DNA of 64,000 nt from IMG/VR virus record IMGVR_UViG_3300028854_000488. One strand, given 5' to 3'. Shown in pieces: positions 4,646-49,073 of the stretch. The position numbers and the translations under genes were made by a program. Numbering within the stretch: the first letter of the stretch is position 1; every line of letters starts with the position of its first letter. This DNA comes from a virus. Lineage: Duplodnaviria; Caudoviricetes. The notes beneath the pieces were generated by a model, which did no database searches, was not told where the DNA came from, and was given only the letters and a program-made list of their open reading frames with translations.

Positions 4646-6349
4646 TTATTTAATATCAATATTATTGTAATATACAAATTTTAGATTACCAGAATCATAT
4701 ATTCTATATATCTTTCTTTCTAACATTATTTCATGCTCTGTTTTATTAATATCAAATCCATCCATAACTAATTTATTTTTTCTGAAGTTAAATTTATTAT
4801 ATCTATTTCTATTTATGACATAAAAATAATTAGGATCAGTTTTTCCTTCATATTTAAATCCTAATTTTTCATATAATTTACCTTGACTAATAGATCTATC
4901 TGAGTACACTGTTATTTTATTAGAATTATAATTTTTAATAAAATAATTAAATAATTGATATTCTCCTTCTATAATATCAGTATTTAATATATTACAAAAC
5001 CTTAATAAATTATATTCTCCTTCATTTATAATATGTCTATTATCAAATGTCATAAGACTTACTAATTTTTTTTCATAAAATAATCCAATTTTAATTTTTG
5101 AACCTATAAATCCTTGAATATTATTATTATTAAGAAATTCTCTAGCTAAATTATTATTATCAATTTTTTTTATTTCACAGTCTATAGCATATATTTTATT
5201 TTTTATTTTTCCTAATTTATTTAATATTATAGATTTTATTATCTCTCTCTTATATAGCCATTCGTCTTCCCATATATGAATTAATTGTATTCCTAATTTT
5301 TCACATTCTTCAGTTTTATTTAAATGATAATTATTATCTTTATTTACTTCATTATGCCAATATATACCATTATATTCAAATGCTAATTTTAAATCTGGTA
5401 AATAAATATCTAATTCTAATGGAGATATTATAGATTTACTATTTAATATTATAGATTTACTATAATTTTCTGATATGAATTCTATAATTTTAGATTCCAT
5501 GAATGAATTAGATGACGGATTACATTTAGGACATAAAATAATATGTTCTAACATTTTATGATTAAACATAGTTTTTGAAATTTTATATGAATGATCACAT
5601 TTATCACATTTAATAATTAAATGATTATCTTCAACTTCAATAATATTTATTTCTTTATATTTATCTTTATATTTTTCAGCGAATTTAGATTTTATTATAT
5701 CACTTTTAAAAGGTGAAATGTTACCATATTTTTCTAAATTTGTGTCTTTTATTTTTTGTTTTATTTTTTCATTTTGAGCTGGATGTTCAAAACCATATTT
5801 TTTTAAATTGGTATTTTTAATTTTATTTTCTATATTTTTATTTTGAGCAGGATATTCTACTCCATATCTTTCTAAATTAGTATTTTTAATTTTATCTCTA
5901 ATTTCTTTATTTTCTAAAGGAATTTCCGTACCATATTTTTCTAAATTTGTTTTTTTTATTTTTTCTTTTACTTCATTATTTAATAATGAAGTTTTATACC
6001 CGTATTTTTTTAAATTAGTTTTTTCTGCTTTTTCTTTTATTTCTTTATTTTTCATAGGATTATCAACTCCAAATAATATATTACTTGTTAGTTTGAATTT
6101 TTCCTTGGAACATTTTTTACAACCATAATAATTATGATTATTGAAATTTTTATAATATTTTTCGATTGAAATATAATTTTCAGAATCACATTTCTCACAA
6201 ATCGCTGTAATTTTAAGTTTTGAATTTTTATTTACATCTTCAATTTTTATATTACAAGTATTACCATTTATAACATTATATCCTAAATTTTTATAATATG
6301 TTATATTTCTACTTGTCATTTGTATATTTAACTCTTTTTCTTTTATCAT
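4646..6349 (-). CDS. Hef-like free-standing homing endonuclease (PD-(D/E)xK/Vsr-like) with TxLxKYG repeats
   Basis: ELDIYLPDLKLAFEYNGIYWH, LIHIWEDEW, Zn-like CxxC pairs, repeated (T/N)LEKYG units. Confidence 0.8.
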   Translation of the reverse strand: MIKEKELNIQMTSRNITYYKNLGYNVINGNTCNIKIEDVNKNSKLKITAICEKCDSENYISIEKYYKNFNNHNYYGCKKCSKEKFKLTSNILFGVDNPMKNKEIKEKAEKTNLKKYGYKTSLLNNEVKEKIKKTNLEKYGTEIPLENKEIRDKIKNTNLERYGVEYPAQNKNIENKIKNTNLKKYGFEHPAQNEKIKQKIKDTNLEKYGNISPFKSDIIKSKFAEKYKDKYKEINIIEVEDNHLIIKCDKCDHSYKISKTMFNHKMLEHIILCPKCNPSSNSFMESKIIEFISENYSKSIILNSKSIISPLELDIYLPDLKLAFEYNGIYWHNEVNKDNNYHLNKTEECEKLGIQLIHIWEDEWLYKREIIKSIILNKLGKIKNKIYAIDCEIKKIDNNNLAREFLNNNNIQGFIGSKIKIGLFYEKKLVSLMTFDNRHIINEGEYNLLRFCNILNTDIIEGEYQLFNYFIKNYNSNKITVYSDRSISQGKLYEKLGFKYEGKTDPNYFYVINRNRYNKFNFRKNKLVMDGFDINKTEHEIMLERKIYRIYDSGNLKFVYYNNIDIK

Positions 6350-6582
6350 GTTATAATTTGTATTTTATGATGATACCATTAGTATCATTATTATCTTTAA
6401 TATTGTATATTTAAAAAATAATAAAGTTTATTTTTTAAACTAATTATATTATAATTATTATATATTAAAATATATTATATTTAATAAACTATATAATTAG
6501 AATATATTATATTTAATAAACTAGATATTTTTTATTTAAACCAAATCATAAATAATTCATATAATAAGAAACAATATATAAA

Positions 6583-7473
6583 ATGACAGCACAAGAAAAG
6601 AGAGATAAAATTTCAGAAGTAAAAAGAAAAATTGATGAAACTAAGGCTGAATACGATAGAGCAAAAGCTATGCAACTTGCATTAAAACTTGTAATTAATG
6701 GAACTTATGGTGCATTTGCACATCCAAAATTTGTATTATCAAATTCTCATATTGCAAATGCAATAACTGCTCAAGGACGTGATGTTATAAATTATATGCT
6801 TAAAAAGATTGAAACATATTTTTATAAAGAATGGCATTTAGACACAAAAACACATCAATTACTCGGACTTGAATATATTGCAGAAAAAGAAGGTAAATTT
6901 TATTTATTAGATAGAAATGGTGAAAATATACATTATACATATACATCAGTAGATAATATGTTAGAAAAATTAAATTATTATCGTGGTGATTTAGTTGAAG
7001 ATAAAAAAGAATTAAATGGATATAATGTATTATATAGTAGATTTGTTTGTGATTGTTCAAATGTAAAACCTATACCAAAAGATGTTCCAATAACAATTTA
7101 TGGTGATACTGATTCCGTTTTTTGTAAGACCATTATAAATACTAATGATGGATATTTTACAATAGAAGATTTATATAATAAAAATATTCAATATGGATCT
7201 GCTGGTGTAACATTAAATGGACATGTGTCAGTTAATTGCAAAGAACTTATTTTAAATTGGAATGAAGATAAAAAACTTTATTATGCGCCAGTTAAGAGAA
7301 TTATTAGGCATAAAGTTTCTAAACCTAAATGGAAATTAAAAACTAAATCTGGTGAGGAAATTATAGTAACTAATGATCATTCTATGATAGTTTTTAGAGA
7401 TAATAAAAAAATAGAAGTTAAACCATCAGAAATATTGAAAACAGATAAAATACTTTCAGTTAGAAAAATATGA
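6583..7473 (+). CDS. polB: Family B DNA polymerase fragment (motifs B and C) fused to the N-half of a split intein
   Basis: KLVINGTYG (motif B) and YGDTD|S, then intein blocks SVFCKT...IIVTNDHS, then stop. Confidence 0.9.
   Translation: MTAQEKRDKISEVKRKIDETKAEYDRAKAMQLALKLVINGTYGAFAHPKFVLSNSHIANAITAQGRDVINYMLKKIETYFYKEWHLDTKTHQLLGLEYIAEKEGKFYLLDRNGENIHYTYTSVDNMLEKLNYYRGDLVEDKKELNGYNVLYSRFVCDCSNVKPIPKDVPITIYGDTDSVFCKTIINTNDGYFTIEDLYNKNIQYGSAGVTLNGHVSVNCKELILNWNEDKKLYYAPVKRIIRHKVSKPKWKLKTKSGEEIIVTNDHSMIVFRDNKKIEVKPSEILKTDKILSVRKI
7114..7470 (+). mobile_element. Split intein N-fragment (119 aa, Ser1)
   Basis: Begins at Ser after YGDTD; block B TxxH (TNDH); ends at the ORF stop. Confidence 0.88.
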
Positions 7474-43289: not shown

Positions 43290-43580
43290 TTATATTTTTT
43301 TATTTTTTAAATATTGCTCTTCAATTTTTGCCCATTTCATTATTGGACACGTGCCACCAGTGTCTTTATATGTGTGATTTGTGAATATCTTTGCTCTCAA
43401 AGCGCATCCACATAGATTACATCTTGTAAATATATCAAATTCTCCTACCGCAACTGTTTCTTTATGCTCACATTCGTTACAAATTTGTATTCTTTCTGAT
43501 GCAAGTTCTGATTGTTCTAAAGTTGGATCAAAGGAAATTTTCCATGCAGTAAAAATTTCTTTTATTTTATTTATATCCAT
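43290..43580 (-). CDS. Small Cys-rich Zn-binding protein
   Basis: CNECEH, CNLCGC, CPIMKW. Confidence 0.75.
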   Translation of the reverse strand: MDINKIKEIFTAWKISFDPTLEQSELASERIQICNECEHKETVAVGEFDIFTRCNLCGCALRAKIFTNHTYKDTGGTCPIMKWAKIEEQYLKNKKI

Positions 43581-43879: not shown

Positions 43880-43959
43880 AACCTACGATGGGATTCAAAC
43901 CCACATTTACAACTTCAATTACAGTTACTTGATTCGTAGTCAAGACTGGTTACATAGGC
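43880..43959 (-). tRNA. Atypical tRNA-Arg(ACG)-like RNA lacking a D arm, with a long variable arm
   Basis: Acceptor GCCTATG/CGTAGGT; anticodon arm CTTGA-CTACGAA-TCAAG; T arm GTGGG-TTTGAAT-CCCAT; only 8 nt between acceptor and anticodon stems. Confidence 0.6.
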
Positions 43960-45123: not shown

Positions 45124-45747
45124 TTAACTTTTTCCTGATATATTATCAACATTTTCTTGAATTTTATCAACATTTTCTTGTATATCATCAGTGCGAGTTT
45201 TTACGAAATTATCATTCTCTTTTACATTCTCTGTTATGTTATTAACATTTTTTTGTATATTATCAATATCAGTTTGAATATTTTTATCATTTTTGTCAAC
45301 ATTTTCCTGAATATCATCAACATTTTCCTGAATATCATCAACATTCTTTTTTATTTTATTATCTGTTTTTTCAACATCAATTTTTATATCATCAACATCT
45401 TTTTCGATATAGTCAACATCTTTTTCAATATCATCAACTTCAGTTTTAATATTTTCTGTCATTCCTTCTATTTTTTCAGATAATTCTTCAATTTTTTTAA
45501 TTATACTATCAGTCCTTTCTCCACTTATTTTAGCAATATAACCCAAAACTGGTAACGCTACACCTTGAAAAAATACGGAAACTATATATTGCATCCATGC
45601 AACTGGTCCTGAAGGCTGACTGAAAAATAATGGTATTATAACTAATAATGTTATTATCCAAAACATAGCCATACTAGATAATGAATTTGATAATATAACT
45701 GCTAAACCTTCTTGTAATGATTCAAATTTTTGTAACAATTTCTTCAT
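45124..45747 (-). CDS. Membrane protein (DUF1003-like N-terminus) with heptad-repeat coiled coil
   Basis: Two TM helices, then (V)DDIQEN 7-aa repeats. Confidence 0.7.
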   Translation of the reverse strand: MKKLLQKFESLQEGLAVILSNSLSSMAMFWIITLLVIIPLFFSQPSGPVAWMQYIVSVFFQGVALPVLGYIAKISGERTDSIIKKIEELSEKIEGMTENIKTEVDDIEKDVDYIEKDVDDIKIDVEKTDNKIKKNVDDIQENVDDIQENVDKNDKNIQTDIDNIQKNVNNITENVKENDNFVKTRTDDIQENVDKIQENVDNISGKS

Positions 45748-45802
45748 ACTACTTTTTATCTTTATATATAAAAAATGTATAATAAATTATTTGTAAAATT
45801 AG

Positions 45803-45885
45803 TGGACTGAGAGGGATTCGAACCCACAAGCTCCGAAGAGAACGCATTTACAGTGCGGCGAGCCAACCAACTGCTCAATCAATCC
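45803..45885 (-). tRNA. tRNA-Tyr(GTA)
   Basis: Anticodon loop CTGTAAA, long variable arm, GGTTCGAATCC. Confidence 0.9.
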
Positions 45886-45890
45886 ATTTG

Positions 45891-45963
45891 TACTCCCAGT
45901 AGGCATTGAACCTACATGACGTGCTTATAAGGCGCGCATACTTACCAATTATATGATAGGAGC
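45891..45963 (-). tRNA. tRNA-Ile(TAT)
   Basis: Anticodon loop CTTATAA; GTAGG-TTCAATG-CCTAC T arm. Confidence 0.85.
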
Positions 45964-45972
45964 ATTATTTAG

Positions 45973-46046
45973 TAGTCTCGGTGAGACTTGAACTCACGAT
46001 TTATTGCTTATCAGGCAATTGCTCTAACCAACTGAACTACAAGACT
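45973..46046 (-). tRNA. tRNA-Ile(GAT)
   Basis: Canonical cloverleaf, loop CTGATAA. Confidence 0.92.
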
Positions 46047-46113
46047 ATATAAGTTTATTTTTATTAATCATAACATACTATTAGTATGATAATAGTCACA
46101 ATTATAAACTATG

Positions 46114-46183
46114 TACCGAATATGATGTTCGAAATCATTTGGATTTCCTTATGAGAGAAATCTCTTTTCCACTAAGCTTCGGC
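46114..46183 (-). tRNA. Degenerate tRNA with CAT anticodon (Met or Ile2)
   Basis: Loop CTCATAA, T arm ATGAT-TTCGAAC-ATCAT; weak D arm. Confidence 0.6.
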
Positions 46184-46196
46184 ATTATGTTTATTG

Positions 46197-46270
46197 AGGC
46201 CAAGGTGGGACTCGAACCCACACAATATAGTTTTGCAGACTATCCCCTTATTCCATTCGGGCACTCGGTC
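46197..46270 (-). tRNA. tRNA-Cys(GCA)
   Basis: Loop CTGCAAA, U73 discriminator. Confidence 0.9.
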
Positions 46271-46278
46271 ATTTTTTG

Positions 46279-46350
46279 CGGGAGTGAGGAATCACGATAT
46301 CCTAACCTACTGGTTAACAGCCAGTTGCTCTGCCTTTGAGCTACATTCCC
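46279..46350 (-). tRNA. tRNA-Asn(GTT) with non-canonical T loop
   Basis: Loop CTGTTAA, G73; T loop ATCGTGA. Confidence 0.8.
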
Positions 46351-46361
46351 ATATATTTTTG

Positions 46362-46436
46362 CTGGAATAGTTGGATTCGAACCAATAACCCTCACTTTAA
46401 CAAAGTGCCGCTCTAACCGTTAAGAGCTACATTCCA
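46362..46436 (-). tRNA. tRNA-Asn(GTT)
   Basis: Loop TTGTTAA, G73, canonical T loop. Confidence 0.88.
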
Positions 46437-46444
46437 ATAATAAG

Positions 46445-46519
46445 CGGACTATAACGGTTACGGTCCGTTAATTTTACTTGAGTGACGGTCAAGTTCTCCA
46501 CCAAGGAGCCTAATAATCC
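46445..46519 (-). tRNA. tRNA-Asp(GTC) with non-canonical T loop
   Basis: CTTGA-CCGTCAC-TCAAG; T arm AACGG-ACCGTAA-CCGTT; G73. Confidence 0.75.
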
Positions 46520-46525
46520 ATTTTT

Positions 46526-46600
46526 TGGTACTGATTAAGAGAGTTGAACTCTTCTTGGCAGGTTGAAAACCTGTAGTCCTAACCGATAGACGAAACCAGC
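46526..46600 (-). tRNA. tRNA-Glu(TTC) with encoded CCA
   Basis: Loop TTTTCAA; ends ...AATCAGT-A-CCA. Confidence 0.9.
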
Positions 46601-46614
46601 ATTAATTTATTTTG

Positions 46615-46760
46615 TGAGATGGAGGGGATTCGAACCAATTGTAATAACTTCTGTGCTTTTCATGTACACTTATTACACATATCTTAATACGTTTATTTAC
46701 CTCATTCCTTAGACACCTGGGTCCATCCCAGGCTGGCTTCACCACAACCATAGCCACCTC
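46615..46760 (-). ncRNA. 146-nt tRNA-like RNA of unknown type
   Basis: Closed 7-bp acceptor-like stem GAGGTGG/CCATCTC + A; GGTTCGAATCC; extra internal hairpins. Confidence 0.55.
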
Positions 46761-46785
46761 ATATTTATTTATTCATTATCCAGTA

Positions 46786-46797
46786 TTTCAAAGAGCA
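46786..46797 (-). promoter_or_regulatory. boxA-like antitermination element TGCTCTTTGAAA
   Basis: Resembles the rrn boxA consensus; lies between the attenuator and the first RNA gene. Confidence 0.55.
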
Positions 46798-46800
46798 TTT

Positions 46801-46845
46801 AAAAACAAAAAACTCAGTTCTTATTTTTAAGAACTGAGTTTTTTT
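46801..46845 (-). terminator. Attenuator terminator upstream of the main tRNA array
   Basis: Minus strand: AAAAAACTCAGTTCTTA-AAAA-TAAGAACTGAGTTTTTT-GTTTTT. Confidence 0.85.
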
Positions 46846-46871
46846 ATTATTCACATAATAATTTTTTTAAC

Positions 46872-47003
46872 TTATCCAGTTCTTCGTACAATATTTTCAT
46901 CATCATTAATATAATCATTATTCATATTAATACATATCTCTTCCATATTGTAATTAATGTTACAATTGCGATAAATGCGATATATGTTATTCATGTTATT
47001 CAT
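46872..47003 (-). CDS. 43-aa attenuator leader peptide (not in the ORF track)
   Basis: MNNMNNIYRIYRNCNINYNMEEICINMNNDYINDDENIVRRTG*; its 3' end is complementary to the terminator 5' arm. Confidence 0.85.
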   Translation of the reverse strand: MNNMNNIYRIYRNCNINYNMEEICINMNNDYINDDENIVRRTG

Positions 47004-47035
47004 AATGTTTACTTTTTTAATTTATTGTTTTTTGT

Positions 47036-47725
47036 TTATTTAAAATTCTTTATTATTCCTGATATTGTGGATTTTGAACAATCTAATAACTTAGAAATGT
47101 CTATTTGTCTTACTCCATCAATATATAATTTTTTAACAACTTCTTTATCTATTTTACTAGACATTTTTTTAAATTTTAATGATTTGTTTTTTATTAGTTC
47201 ATAATTATTATTAAAAAAATCAACATCAGAATGTTCAATTGTATGACAATTTGCACATAATATTTGACATTTATTTAATTCTTCTATTATTTCTATTCTT
47301 ATCTCTTCTATGGAAGAAATATTTTCTTTGACAAATCTAAATTCAAAATTTTTATCTTTTAAATGATGAAAATGTAATGCACTTGTTGTATTATTATATC
47401 CACATTTTTCACATCCTTTTACATTTTTATATTCTAAGAATATTTTTTTATCATTTGTTCTATATGTCTTAGGTTTATCATGAAACTCATAATGACAATT
47501 TTGACATAATAACTCACATTTTTCAACTTCTTTGAATATATTTTTCCAATTTTTACCCCACATACGAGATAATCTATATTCTTTATCTTCAGAATTCGTA
47601 TGATGAAAACATAATTTAAAAAAATTAGTTTCTCCACATTTTTTACATTTACCTCCTAAAAAATTTATTGCTTTTAATTTTTTAGCAAATCTTAAAATTT
47701 TAGTACTATACATTTTATCTGTCAT
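47036..47725 (-). CDS. Tandem double-HNH endonuclease inserted in the tRNA region
   Basis: Two CxxCG...FHH...ExxKCxLLCxNCH units; C-terminal HTH-like segment. Confidence 0.85.
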   Translation of the reverse strand: MTDKMYSTKILRFAKKLKAINFLGGKCKKCGETNFFKLCFHHTNSEDKEYRLSRMWGKNWKNIFKEVEKCELLCQNCHYEFHDKPKTYRTNDKKIFLEYKNVKGCEKCGYNNTTSALHFHHLKDKNFEFRFVKENISSIEEIRIEIIEELNKCQILCANCHTIEHSDVDFFNNNYELIKNKSLKFKKMSSKIDKEVVKKLYIDGVRQIDISKLLDCSKSTISGIIKNFK

Positions 47726-47740
47726 AGTTCAACTTTTTAT

Positions 47741-47752
47741 TTTATATATAAA
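47741..47752 (-). promoter_or_regulatory. Recurrent TTTATATATA(A/C) motif, putative phage late promoter
   Basis: Found ~5-35 nt upstream of many ORFs (e.g. 2066, 14141, 16998, 21381, 31251, 47725, 58351). Confidence 0.5.
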
Positions 47753-47801
47753 TATAAAATAATGAACTTTTTATAAAATGTATAATTTTTTATTTATTTG
47801 T

Positions 47802-47870
47802 TGCGTGGAGGTAGATTCGAACTCCTACTTCAGCTTATGAGACTGATATGTTACCATTACAATATCCCGC
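47802..47870 (-). tRNA. Degenerate tRNA-Met(CAT)
   Basis: TCAGT-CTCATAA-GCTGA; bulged acceptor stem and imperfect T stem. Confidence 0.6.
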
Positions 47871-47884
47871 ATTTTTTATTATTG

Positions 47885-47955
47885 TTGCGATCGTAGGATT
47901 CGGACCTCGTTTCAGGGTTATGAGCCCTATATGCTGCCATTGCATCACCATCGCG
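47885..47955 (-). tRNA. Initiator-type tRNA-fMet(CAT)
   Basis: C1:A72 mismatch and GGG/CCC anticodon stem; T loop TCCGAAT. Confidence 0.75.
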
Positions 47956-47962
47956 ATATATT

Positions 47963-48352
47963 TTAATTTTTTTCTTTATCAATTTTTTTATAGAGTTTTT
48001 TAGCAATTTCTTTTGCTTTTGAACTCATACCTTTTTCTGTTTTAGGAACTTCTTTATCGTCAATTTTGATTTTATCAGCAAACATTATAAATTTTTCAGT
48101 TCTATCAGATTTTCTTTTCAGTTCATCGTAATTTTCTTGAATTTTATTTACTACTTTTACTGACTCATCAATTTTTTTTTCTTTACTTTTAATTTCGTTA
48201 TAATAATTTTGAATATTTATTATTTCTTCTTTAACGCTTTGATGTCTTTCAACATTTTTTTCTTTTTTACGTTTTTTTTCTTCTTTTATATTTTGAAGTT
48301 TACTATTTTCTATTTTTTTATCTTCTAATAATTTCTTAACAAATTTATTCAT
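47963..48352 (-). CDS. Lys/Glu-rich coiled-coil hypothetical protein
   Basis: Likely start MNKFVKK directly after the attenuator U-tract. Confidence 0.65.
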   Translation of the reverse strand: MNKFVKKLLEDKKIENSKLQNIKEEKKRKKEKNVERHQSVKEEIINIQNYYNEIKSKEKKIDESVKVVNKIQENYDELKRKSDRTEKFIMFADKIKIDDKEVPKTEKGMSSKAKEIAKKLYKKIDKEKN

Positions 48353-48385
48353 AAAAAAACCAGTCATTTTTTAATGACTGGTTTT
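48353..48385 (-). terminator. Second attenuator terminator
   Basis: Minus strand: AAAACCAGTCATT-AAAA-AATGACTGGTTTTTTT. Confidence 0.8.
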
Positions 48386-48414
48386 GTATAATTTTAGGCA
48401 TATAAGCCTGAATT

Positions 48415-48468
48415 TTAAATTCCAGTCAATTGTGATGTATCATCATTAATGATATTTTCGTTACACAT
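48415..48468 (-). CDS. 17-aa attenuator leader peptide (not in the ORF track)
   Basis: MCNENIINDDTSQLTGI*; TGACTGG near its end is complementary to the terminator 5' arm CCAGTCA. Confidence 0.7.
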   Translation of the reverse strand: MCNENIINDDTSQLTGI

Positions 48469-48576
48469 TTCTATATATAAATTTTGATACATTTTGTTTT
48501 CTTTTTTATTTTTTTTTTAGTCTTTCTTATATATAATAGAAAAAAAGTCATTTTTTTCTATTTTTAATTTGTAGTA

Positions 48577-48584
48577 CAAAAGTA
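48577..48584 (-). promoter_or_regulatory. Bacteroidota-type -7 element TACTTTTG upstream of the first leader
   Basis: TAnnTTTG match. Confidence 0.5.
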
Positions 48585-48686
48585 ATACAAAGTTTTTAAT
48601 CTACCAAATGTTTTTAAACTTATTTAAAAAATAACCTTTCTTTTCAGTGAAGAAAAAAAAGGTTTAGTTTTTATACTTTTTAATTT

Positions 48687-48866
48687 TTACAACGAAACTT
48701 CTTCTTTTTTCATTGTATAAAATGTAAGTCCACCTTTTTCTTTTCCAACACCAGGTACAGTCATAAAATTATTAAAATTTACACTTTTTTTTACTGAATG
48801 ATATTCATTTTTAGTCAAAAAGAAAACTTTTGCTGATTTAGATGAATTTTCTGAATTTGTTGTCAT
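48687..48866 (-). CDS. 59-aa hypothetical protein (not in the ORF track)
   Basis: MTTNSENSSKSAKVFFLTKNEYHSVK...EEVSL*, downstream of TACATTTG at 48915-48922. Confidence 0.55.
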   Translation of the reverse strand: MTTNSENSSKSAKVFFLTKNEYHSVKKSVNFNNFMTVPGVGKEKGGLTFYTMKKEEVSL

Positions 48867-49073
48867 AATAGTTGAATTTAAATTGTTTAAATGTTTGTTG
48901 TTTTAATTACACTACAAATGTACTTCGAATACTTTTATGTACCAAATATTTAATTTGTTTTTATTATTCTTTATAATAATTTGTATATATTTCACATTTA
49001 GAATATAATTAAACTATAAAAATACTAATAATTAAAAAAATATAATAATATATACTCAAAAATAATATAGATT

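Follow-up and report, generated by a model that had tools for sequence, protein, structure and literature searches.

Are the transfer RNA (tRNA) genes of a phage simply left on, or can their transcription be made to depend on translation itself? Phage tRNA genes are usually treated as constitutive helpers, serving codon usage or acting against tRNA-cutting defences. The question is raised by a locus on the minus strand of a 64,000-nucleotide (nt) stretch of DNA, hereafter called the window, from the IMG/VR record IMGVR_UViG_3300028854_000488 (Caudoviricetes). Here, a small open reading frame (ORF), leader 2, precedes an intrinsic terminator, T2. Behind T2 lie a Lys/Glu-rich ORF, two tRNA genes, and a further leader and terminator (leader 1 and T1, together attenuator 1), which are followed by a tRNA array (Table 1). 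A preliminary description of this DNA interpreted leader 2 and T2 as a transcription attenuator, and the minus-strand coordinates that it gave all check. The present analysis, which draws on anatomy, conservation, alternative pairings, and codon match as read from the sequence, supports this interpretation. The leader 2 unit is probably a functional ribosome-mediated (leader-peptide) transcription attenuator and the first of two in series. The reading frame, the stem, the re-made antiterminator, the fold of the nascent RNA, the codon match, and the serial order are all as predicted for such a system.

Terminator T2 and its alternative pairing

The stem of T2 contains four G-C pairs and is followed by a tract of seven U, which ends 1 nt before the ATG at 48352. 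Near the end of leader 2, the heptanucleotide TGACTGG is complementary to CCAGTCA in the 5' arm of T2, and a small AGGC/GCCT hairpin lies between the two strands. All three elements had been named in the preliminary description and are present at the positions listed in Table 1.

The chance occurrence of such a pairing was assessed on the 18 oriented perfect-stem terminators of the window. In the 115 nt upstream of each, the exact copy of the 3' arm with the highest information content was sought, with 2000 shuffles for comparison. For T2, the copy TGACTGG carries 16.6 bits, is located 43 nt upstream, and was matched in 11 of 2000 shuffles (P ~0.006). The copy belonging to T1, AAGAACTG, carries 16.3 bits at a distance of 40 nt and was matched in 12 of 2000 (P ~0.006). 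These are the only two of the 18 terminators with a high-information upstream copy of the 3' arm, the next best being a low-complexity A-run (53 of 2000). The shuffle test thus singles out T1 and T2, bearing out the earlier argument that the recurring architecture goes beyond chance.

Folding predictions were made for the nascent and the ribosome-covered RNA. Before the 3' arm of T2 exists, the best fold is the TGACTGG/CCAGTCA helix, with -15.0 kcal/mol versus -16.1 kcal/mol for T2. Masking the RNA covered by a ribosome at the stop codon abolishes this antiterminator helix and leaves only the terminator. The helix stays intact when the masked ribosome is placed at codon 13 or 17.

A second version of the pairing is found in the relatives of the window. 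Their antiterminator, AATTGACTG/CAGTCAATT, comprises 9 base pairs (bp) compared to the 7 bp of the window. The last G of TGACTGG, and with it one G-C pair, has been lost, and three A-U pairs have been gained via a 1-nt insertion in the T2 loop that creates CAGTCAATT. In the relative L001, the 9-bp antiterminator is present even within the full-length minimum-energy fold. From two aligned variants, the strongest evolutionary evidence that can be had is a change of this kind, in which pairing disappears at one end of a helix and is restored at the other. The stem of T2 itself carries a compensatory A-U to U-A swap in the relatives (AAAACC..GGTTTT to AAATCC..GGATTT), and the AGGC/GCCT stem is conserved there with a loop that is 2 nt shorter.

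The leader 2 ORF

The leader was initially assigned to 48468->48415. The ATG at 48468-48466, the stop codon at 48417-48415, and the encoded peptide MCNENIINDDTSQLTGI are indeed present; the assigned start is the part that needs revision. An in-frame ATG at 48492, 24 nt further upstream, is conserved in the relatives, and a 6-nt indel falls between the two ATGs, which makes a leader of 25 codons more likely. Judged by this conservation, leader 2 most likely starts at 48492, and ATG 48468 is internal. The ORF sits 85 nt downstream of a promoter-like site, and the 15 nt upstream of ATG 48492 are A-rich, as in other genes of the window.

In the only other lineage found (L001-L007), the leader reads MYRNLYINEEMCNNEIINNIDDTSQLTEK, followed by the stop codon. 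The nucleotide alignment between the window and the relatives contains two indels within the leader ORF, of 6 nt each, with the frame kept. Just past the leader stop the indels measure 2, 2, and 1 nt, and in the 5' leader 12 and ~20 nt. The lineages further differ by the synonymous changes TTA to CTA and TCA to TCC. At the peptide level, four residues are added in the relative (N, E, N, and I) and the C-terminus is altered, with the composition kept. Drift of this kind, preserving frame and composition, is what the alignment would be expected to show for regulatory codons and not for a folded peptide. Leader 2 is probably constrained as a coding sequence and looks translated.

Two similarities between leader 1 and leader 2 had been pointed out. 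INDD is present in both. The ending ACT GGA (Thr-Gly) likewise occurs in both leaders of the window, but it is not conserved for leader 2, as the relatives end in ACT GAG AAA TAA.

Codon match between leaders and tRNAs

Assuming a footprint of ~12-15 nt downstream of the ribosomal A site, the antiterminator strand is free only when the A site is located at about codon 18 or earlier. Codons 2-18 of leader 2 encode Y Q N L Y I E M C N E N I I N D D. Fifteen of these 17 codons are read by tRNAs of the cluster, against a background of 0.43 (P 1.4e-4; 7e-4 without Asp). In the leader of the relative, 20 of 21 codons match (P 5e-7). Among 38 distinct tRNA sets, the others being taken from other huge phages, that of the unit itself comes first whichever way the leader is defined. 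Leader 2 of the window contains no Lys, which is otherwise the most common residue (11%). Leader 1 is at the top of 415 small ORFs for codon match (P 1e-10), and the tRNAs of the array read codons that make up both leaders.

The Arg codon in the relative's leader is the rare CGT, which is read by the phage tRNA-Arg(ACG); in the window, this tRNA gene is located beyond the array, at 43880-43959. AGA accounts for 79% of the Arg codons in the window, while three of the four Arg codons of leader 1 are CGC, CGC, and CGA.

Genes behind T2 and the second attenuator

The preliminary description placed a 130-aa Lys/Glu-rich ORF and two tRNAs with CAU anticodons behind T2. Both are present downstream of T2, the ORF having a length of 129 amino acids (aa). 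As there is no room for a second promoter between T2 and the ORF, transcription of the ORF and the tRNAs has to pass through T2. The C-terminal 75-83 aa of the encoded protein are 77-88% identical in the relatives; neither Pfam nor PHROG gave a match, and the ESM Atlas gave nothing usable. A further in-frame ATG, at 48367, lies inside the 3' arm of T2, and its frame relative to ATG 48352 is kept in L001 (15 versus 18 nt). The true start of the ORF may therefore lie inside the T2 hairpin. Read from the ATG within the arm, the proteins begin with MTGFFM... in the window and MTGFFVM... in L001.

The two CAU tRNAs are detected by Rfam and missed by ARAGORN. They had been labelled as formylmethionine (fMet) and Met tRNAs. 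For the first tRNA, 'fMet' is uncertain because G1-C72 is paired, despite a GGG/CCC anticodon stem that is typical of initiators.

The window, L001, and L004 all share the order promoter(s), leader 2, T2, ORF, CAU tRNA(s), leader 1, T1, and tRNA array. A motif scan, which covers the TTTGGT class of promoters only, gave no such promoter between T2 and leader 1. Two attenuators in series within one operon are a reasonable interpretation of this gene order, in agreement with the earlier proposal that the tRNA region is gated by two serial attenuators.

The position of the homing endonuclease gene varies in the tRNA operon. The window carries an HNH gene, L001 has none, and in L004 a different spot (6300-6951) is occupied by a gene presumably of the GIY-YIG type, recognised by eye from its sequence. 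Two weak tRNA-like elements are located inside the array. One (46114-46183, minus strand) has a CAU anticodon loop and scores 22.5 bits with Rfam, below the threshold. The other (46445-46519, minus strand), with GUC as its anticodon, C33, and an unusual T loop, is called by neither Rfam nor ARAGORN; its sequence is probably that of a non-canonical tRNA-Asp(GUC).

Table 1. Features of the leader 2 unit, its surroundings, and units of the same design.
Feature	Position	Strand	Basis and remarks
Intrinsic terminator of upstream 59-aa gene	48633..48664	-	Terminator scan; 13 pairs, then ATTTTTT; 5' boundary of the unit
Promoter-like site TTTGGT-N18-TACTTTTG	48577..48608	-	Bacteroidota type: -33 TTTG, -7 TAnnTTTG
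A/U-rich 10-bp hairpin TAGAAAAAAA-TGAC-TTTTTTTCTA in 5' leader	48537..48560	-	Read from sequence
Leader 2 ORF, 25 codons + stop, MYQNLYIEMCNENIINDDTSQLTGI	48415..48492	-	In-frame ATG 48492
Antiterminator 5' strand TGACTGG	48422..48428	-	Codons 22-24 of leader 2; complementary to CCAGTCA in T2 5' arm
Small hairpin AGGC-loop-GCCT	48396..48409	-	Enclosed by antiterminator helix
Intrinsic terminator T2, 13-bp stem AAAACCAGTCATT/AATGACTGGTTTT	48353..48385	-	-16.1 kcal/mol; stem 48385-48356, U-tract to 48353
Lys/Glu-rich ORF, 129 aa	47963..48352	-	Adjoins T2
tRNA, CAU anticodon, initiator-like GGG/CCC anticodon stem, G1-C72 paired	47886..47954	-	Rfam RF00005, 41.3 bits
Second tRNA, CAU anticodon (elongator Met or Ile2)	47802..47870	-	Rfam RF00005, 35.0 bits
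HNH homing endonuclease gene	47036..47725	-	PHROG HNH families, E 2e-30; between CAU tRNAs and leader 1
Attenuator 1	46807..47003	-	43-codon leader 47003-46872 + terminator T1 46844-46807; next in series
tRNA array Glu, Asn, Asn, Cys, Ile(GAU), Ile(UAU), Tyr + weak tRNA-like elements	45802..46600	-	tRNA searches
Leader MNNNISNMIQQQQQTYV + stop	L010:1369-1500 (G001 contig, 217368-217499)		Before four tRNA-Gln genes; 330-kb contig that also carries leader 2
Leader MTTSFQQQQQQQINRTD			Huge-phage example; downstream tRNAs Gln x4
Leader ...NIAIVEIAVIGGAEEGV...			Huge-phage example; downstream tRNAs Glu, Ala, Ile, Val, Gly
Leader ...TSKSSSRSSS...			Huge-phage example; downstream tRNAs Arg, Ser
Leader ...KHKHFSKLNKWFSNHRF...			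Huge-phage example; downstream tRNAs Phe, His, Phe, Lys x3
Leader ...IIKKKKR...			Huge-phage example; downstream tRNAs Lys x3
Leader ...QQYKQYQPQYK...			Huge-phage example; downstream tRNAs Tyr, Tyr, Gln

Genomic setting and expression signals

The sequence features of the window argue for a giant phage as its source. PHROG matches among the window proteins include SbcC-like proteins and HNH/homing endonucleases, and the DNA is weakly similar to the uncultured huge phages LR7565xx of 630-735 kilobases (kb). IMG/VR holds relatives of the window, one of which is a 330-kb contig with a completeness judged to be 46%, and many peat metagenomes carry near-identical DNA. The guanine-cytosine (GC) content of the window is 20-30%. 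A eukaryotic giant virus was considered as the origin because of the low GC content of the DNA (22%) and the missing Shine-Dalgarno motifs. This option was rejected because of the PHROG hits, the similarity to huge phages, the intrinsic terminators, and the Bacteroidota-type signals.

Shine-Dalgarno motifs precede only 3 of 72 ORFs in the window, which equals the rate at random positions, and the 15 nt before the start codons consist of 58% A. The extended promoter motif TTTGGT-N15-19-TAnnTTTG occurs at five sites in the window versus 0.23 in shuffles, with four of the five directly upstream of ORFs; for the plain motif TTTG-N17-22-TAnnTTTG, the window shows no enrichment (11 versus 7.2). The promoter consensus, the absence of Shine-Dalgarno motifs, and the A-rich start regions are taken here to be Bacteroidota expression signals. 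The promoter-like site upstream of leader 2 is conserved in L001 and L004, where it is present as a tandem duplicate. The copies are ~100 nt apart (5622-5752 in L001, 5629-5759 in L004), and the window has a single copy. The site is followed by an A/U-rich hairpin, an A-rich stretch, the small ORF, the AGGC/GCCT hairpin, and the terminator, in this order. The A/U-rich hairpin (48560-48537) is located near the predicted 5' end of the transcript and does not vary between the window, L001, and L004; it might serve to stabilise the RNA or as a pause site.

Contigs of three peat/permafrost metatranscriptome runs were aligned to 45700-48950. Exact-match RNA contigs cover 48029-48334 within the 129-aa ORF (two studies) and 48359-48491, from the leader to the terminator (third study). 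Flanking genes are without exact cover; the contigs show no ends, strand, or level, and gaps in their cover are uninformative. A very high depth at 48482-48525 corresponds to low-complexity A/T sequence and was disregarded. The cover of the ORF and of the leader-terminator stretch gives a weak hint of expression.

The same design elsewhere

Leader 2 is not the only leader of this kind. On the related 330-kb contig, which also carries leader 2, a leader with five consecutive Gln codons (QQQQQ; chance ~6e-8) immediately precedes four tRNA-Gln genes. In this Gln unit, GATTGGGT overlaps the leader stop and is the exact complement of ACCCAATC, the 5' arm of the first of two tandem terminators. The predicted antiterminator GATTGGGT/ACCCAATC has 8 bp, and a long hairpin is predicted to sequester its strand when the leader is not translated. 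By its predicted pairings, the Gln unit is a full trp-type set of 1:2, 2:3, and 3:4 helices.

The survey was extended to four published huge phages, LR756501, LR756502, LR756504, and LR745206, which have 43-62 tRNAs each. In 27 clusters, small ORFs upstream of tRNA sub-clusters were listed, and each upstream region was scored, with the same maximisation throughout, for its match to its own tRNAs and to the tRNA sets belonging to every other region. Seven regions rank first of ~70 sets and 12 rank third or better. At least 20 codon-matched units of leader and terminator stand before tRNA sub-clusters in these four phages (examples in Table 1), and most of them include a strong terminator, the 5' arm of which can pair with the leader's 3' end. 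T2 does not stand directly before tRNA genes, as the 129-aa ORF lies in between; a small ORF is similarly interposed in one unit of LR756502 (L034).

The tRNA genes of the four huge phages are grouped by amino acid (L018-L044), and many groups have a codon-matched leader ahead. Shared features of their leaders are the N-termini MKT(I/V)N, MTT, or MKNL, and a GVY(S/C) codon block that pairs with the terminator arm ACCC... to give the antiterminator.

Diverged copies of the leader 2 unit itself were sought in three ways. When the 129-aa ORF was used as a protein query on viral contigs, nine loci of only two sequence types came up. A degenerate DNA pattern for DDTSQLT returned the same lineages from the viral contigs, in addition to three unrelated coding matches. 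A metagenome scan yielded three loci of the same sequence types.

Proposed mechanism and alternatives

It is deduced from the features above that leader 2 is translated, that this translation is coupled to transcription, and in which direction the switch would respond; the following sequence of events is proposed. A host-type RNA polymerase would start at the promoter 48608-48577 and transcribe the 25-codon leader. A fast ribosome would reach the stop codon and cover TGACTGG, which would let the 13-bp terminator form and end transcription at ~48353. With a ribosome delayed at codons 2-18 (Tyr, Asn, Ile, Glu, Met, Cys, and Asp), TGACTGG would remain free and pair with CCAGTCA before the 3' arm is made, and the polymerase would read on. 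Read-through would cover the 129-aa ORF, the two CAU tRNAs, and, provided that attenuator 1 also lets the polymerase pass, the tRNA array. The slowly read leader codons would be those decoded by the array tRNAs. Combined with the switch, this codon match implies that the unit would raise phage tRNA synthesis when the matching charged tRNAs run short. Since the terminator touches the start codon of the 129-aa ORF, the switch may also open this start for ribosomes.

Several observations weigh against attenuation, and some of them suit a rival explanation, namely an ordinary small gene or untranslated leader in front of a constitutive leaky terminator. Such an arrangement would give a fixed ratio of short to long transcripts without any sensing. 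The antiterminator of the window is short (7 bp) and closes a 40-nt loop, and the minimum-energy fold of the full-length RNA is the terminator. Over the whole of leader 2, the codon enrichment is modest (16 of 24, P 0.016, 6th of 415 small ORFs), and Asn, Ile, and Tyr codons are abundant in AT-rich genomes in any case. This main rival is nevertheless unlikely. It leaves unexplained why copies of the 3' arm are found only at T1 and T2 among 18 terminators, each time equally far upstream and where a small ORF ends. It accounts neither for the re-made pairing in the relative nor for the absence of Lys from the leader of the window, and the residues gained by the relative, which come from the tRNA set, as well as the five-Gln leader before tRNA-Gln genes, are equally left aside. 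Further difficulties concern attenuation itself. The directly gated tRNAs have CAU anticodons, yet leader 2 holds one internal Met codon only, and its codons match the distal array better than these two tRNAs. The Asp in the tRNA set comes from the non-canonical element, which neither tRNA search program calls. No clear 1:2 hairpin was seen in the unit and the untranslated nascent RNA still folds into the antiterminator, so that, in contrast to trp, read-through would be the default whenever the leader is not translated. No RNA contig bridges T2, and DNA carry-over into the RNA libraries is possible. Lastly, two sequence variants of the unit were found in the viral and metagenome collections, and the covariation rests on single events.

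Control could also be exerted on translation, as in erm- or cat-like attenuators: the hairpin would hide the start of the 129-aa ORF, a leader ribosome that stalls would open it, and termination would be secondary. The hairpin does end 1 nt before ATG 48352, the in-frame ATG 48367 lies in its 3' arm with the inter-ATG frame kept in L001, and the genes of this phage lack Shine-Dalgarno motifs and have A-rich, probably unstructured upstream regions. However, the hairpin has every feature of an intrinsic terminator (13-bp stem, 7 U), and sister units stand directly before tRNA genes, where translational control is meaningless. As a replacement for transcription attenuation, this mode is quite improbable; as an addition it may coexist, since a translational switch on the ORF start and attenuation are not exclusive. 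A last alternative takes the ~215-nt transcript from promoter to terminator as a small RNA, or its 25-aa peptide as functional, with the downstream genes reached by incidental read-through. The exact RNA contig 48359-48491 stops at the U-tract, and there is a precedent in the Sinorhizobium trp operon, whose attenuator RNA and leader peptide are described in one preprint as acting in trans (bioRxiv 10.1101/606483). The peptide sequence of leader 2 is not conserved and its composition is kept, which fits regulatory codons better than a folded peptide, and no protein family was found for it. This alternative is very improbable, and a leader-peptide attenuator remains the favoured explanation.

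If leader 2 and T2 do act as an attenuator, the phage would measure decoding speed and make tRNAs on demand, a feedback loop on the translation machinery itself. The unit would add two switches in series, the gating of a protein gene and an initiator-like tRNA, and pairings that were re-made in evolution. With ~140 nt, the switch is a compact and easily testable part. More tentatively, and with less confidence than is placed in the attenuator as such, the serial attenuators might form a two-stage sensor of decoding capacity (Asn, Ile, Tyr, Glu, Cys, Met, and Asp). The tRNAs, the possible initiator tRNA, and the Lys/Glu-rich protein would then be switched on only when the host tRNAs for these codons run low or have been cleaved by the host's anticodon nucleases. 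In that case, the unit would sense translation damage, either for counter-defence or for the codon demand of an AT-rich phage.

Comparison with known systems

Full-text searches of the literature found no description of leader-peptide attenuation of tRNA genes. One candidate paper on this subject was set aside, as it mentions a tRNA operon only in passing. Among the Rfam leader families (Trp_leader, His_leader, Leu_leader, Thr_leader, and others) and T-box, no match reached the gathering score in the window, and between positions 43500 and 49000 none was obtained even at E values up to 1. Compared with the searchable published work, the new aspects are the target, which is tRNA genes, and the sensed codons, which are those read by the gated tRNAs.

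Close parallels in design are the attenuators of enterobacterial amino acid operons (trpL, hisL, leuL, thrL, ilvL, and pheL). These likewise have a short ORF in the 5' leader that is enriched in regulatory codons, an intrinsic terminator before the structural genes, and an antiterminator formed by the end of the leader ORF and the 5' arm of the terminator. In these operons the position of the ribosome picks the fold, as is proposed for the present unit. Several amino acids are sensed at once by thrL and ilvL, too. Unlike these systems, the unit gates tRNA genes and a small protein instead of biosynthetic enzymes, and its sensed codons are those of the gated tRNAs. It also differs in its phage origin, its Bacteroidota-type signals without Shine-Dalgarno motifs, the absence of a clear 1:2 hairpin, and the arrangement of two attenuators in series.

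In the pheST attenuator of E. coli, a leader (pheM) rich in one codon type controls Phe-tRNA synthetase. The supply of charged tRNA thereby feeds back on the decoding machinery, as would be the case here; pheST differs in gating a synthetase, in sensing one amino acid, and in being part of a bacterial chromosomal operon. Like the proposed switch, T-box riboswitches respond to the state of a specific tRNA by forming either a terminator or an antiterminator, and they stand ahead of genes that serve aminoacyl-tRNA supply. They bind uncharged tRNA via a specifier codon without translation, whereas the present unit would sense through a translated ORF.

Further parallels are the leaders of LR756501, LR756502, LR756504, and LR745206. 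They share with leader 2 a small ORF written in the amino acids of the downstream tRNAs and a terminator whose 5' arm is able to pair with the 3' end of this ORF. The leader 2 unit is distinguished from them by a terminator that abuts a protein gene, by codons that match the array behind the second attenuator, and by a leader without the MKT(I/V)N start and the GVYS block.

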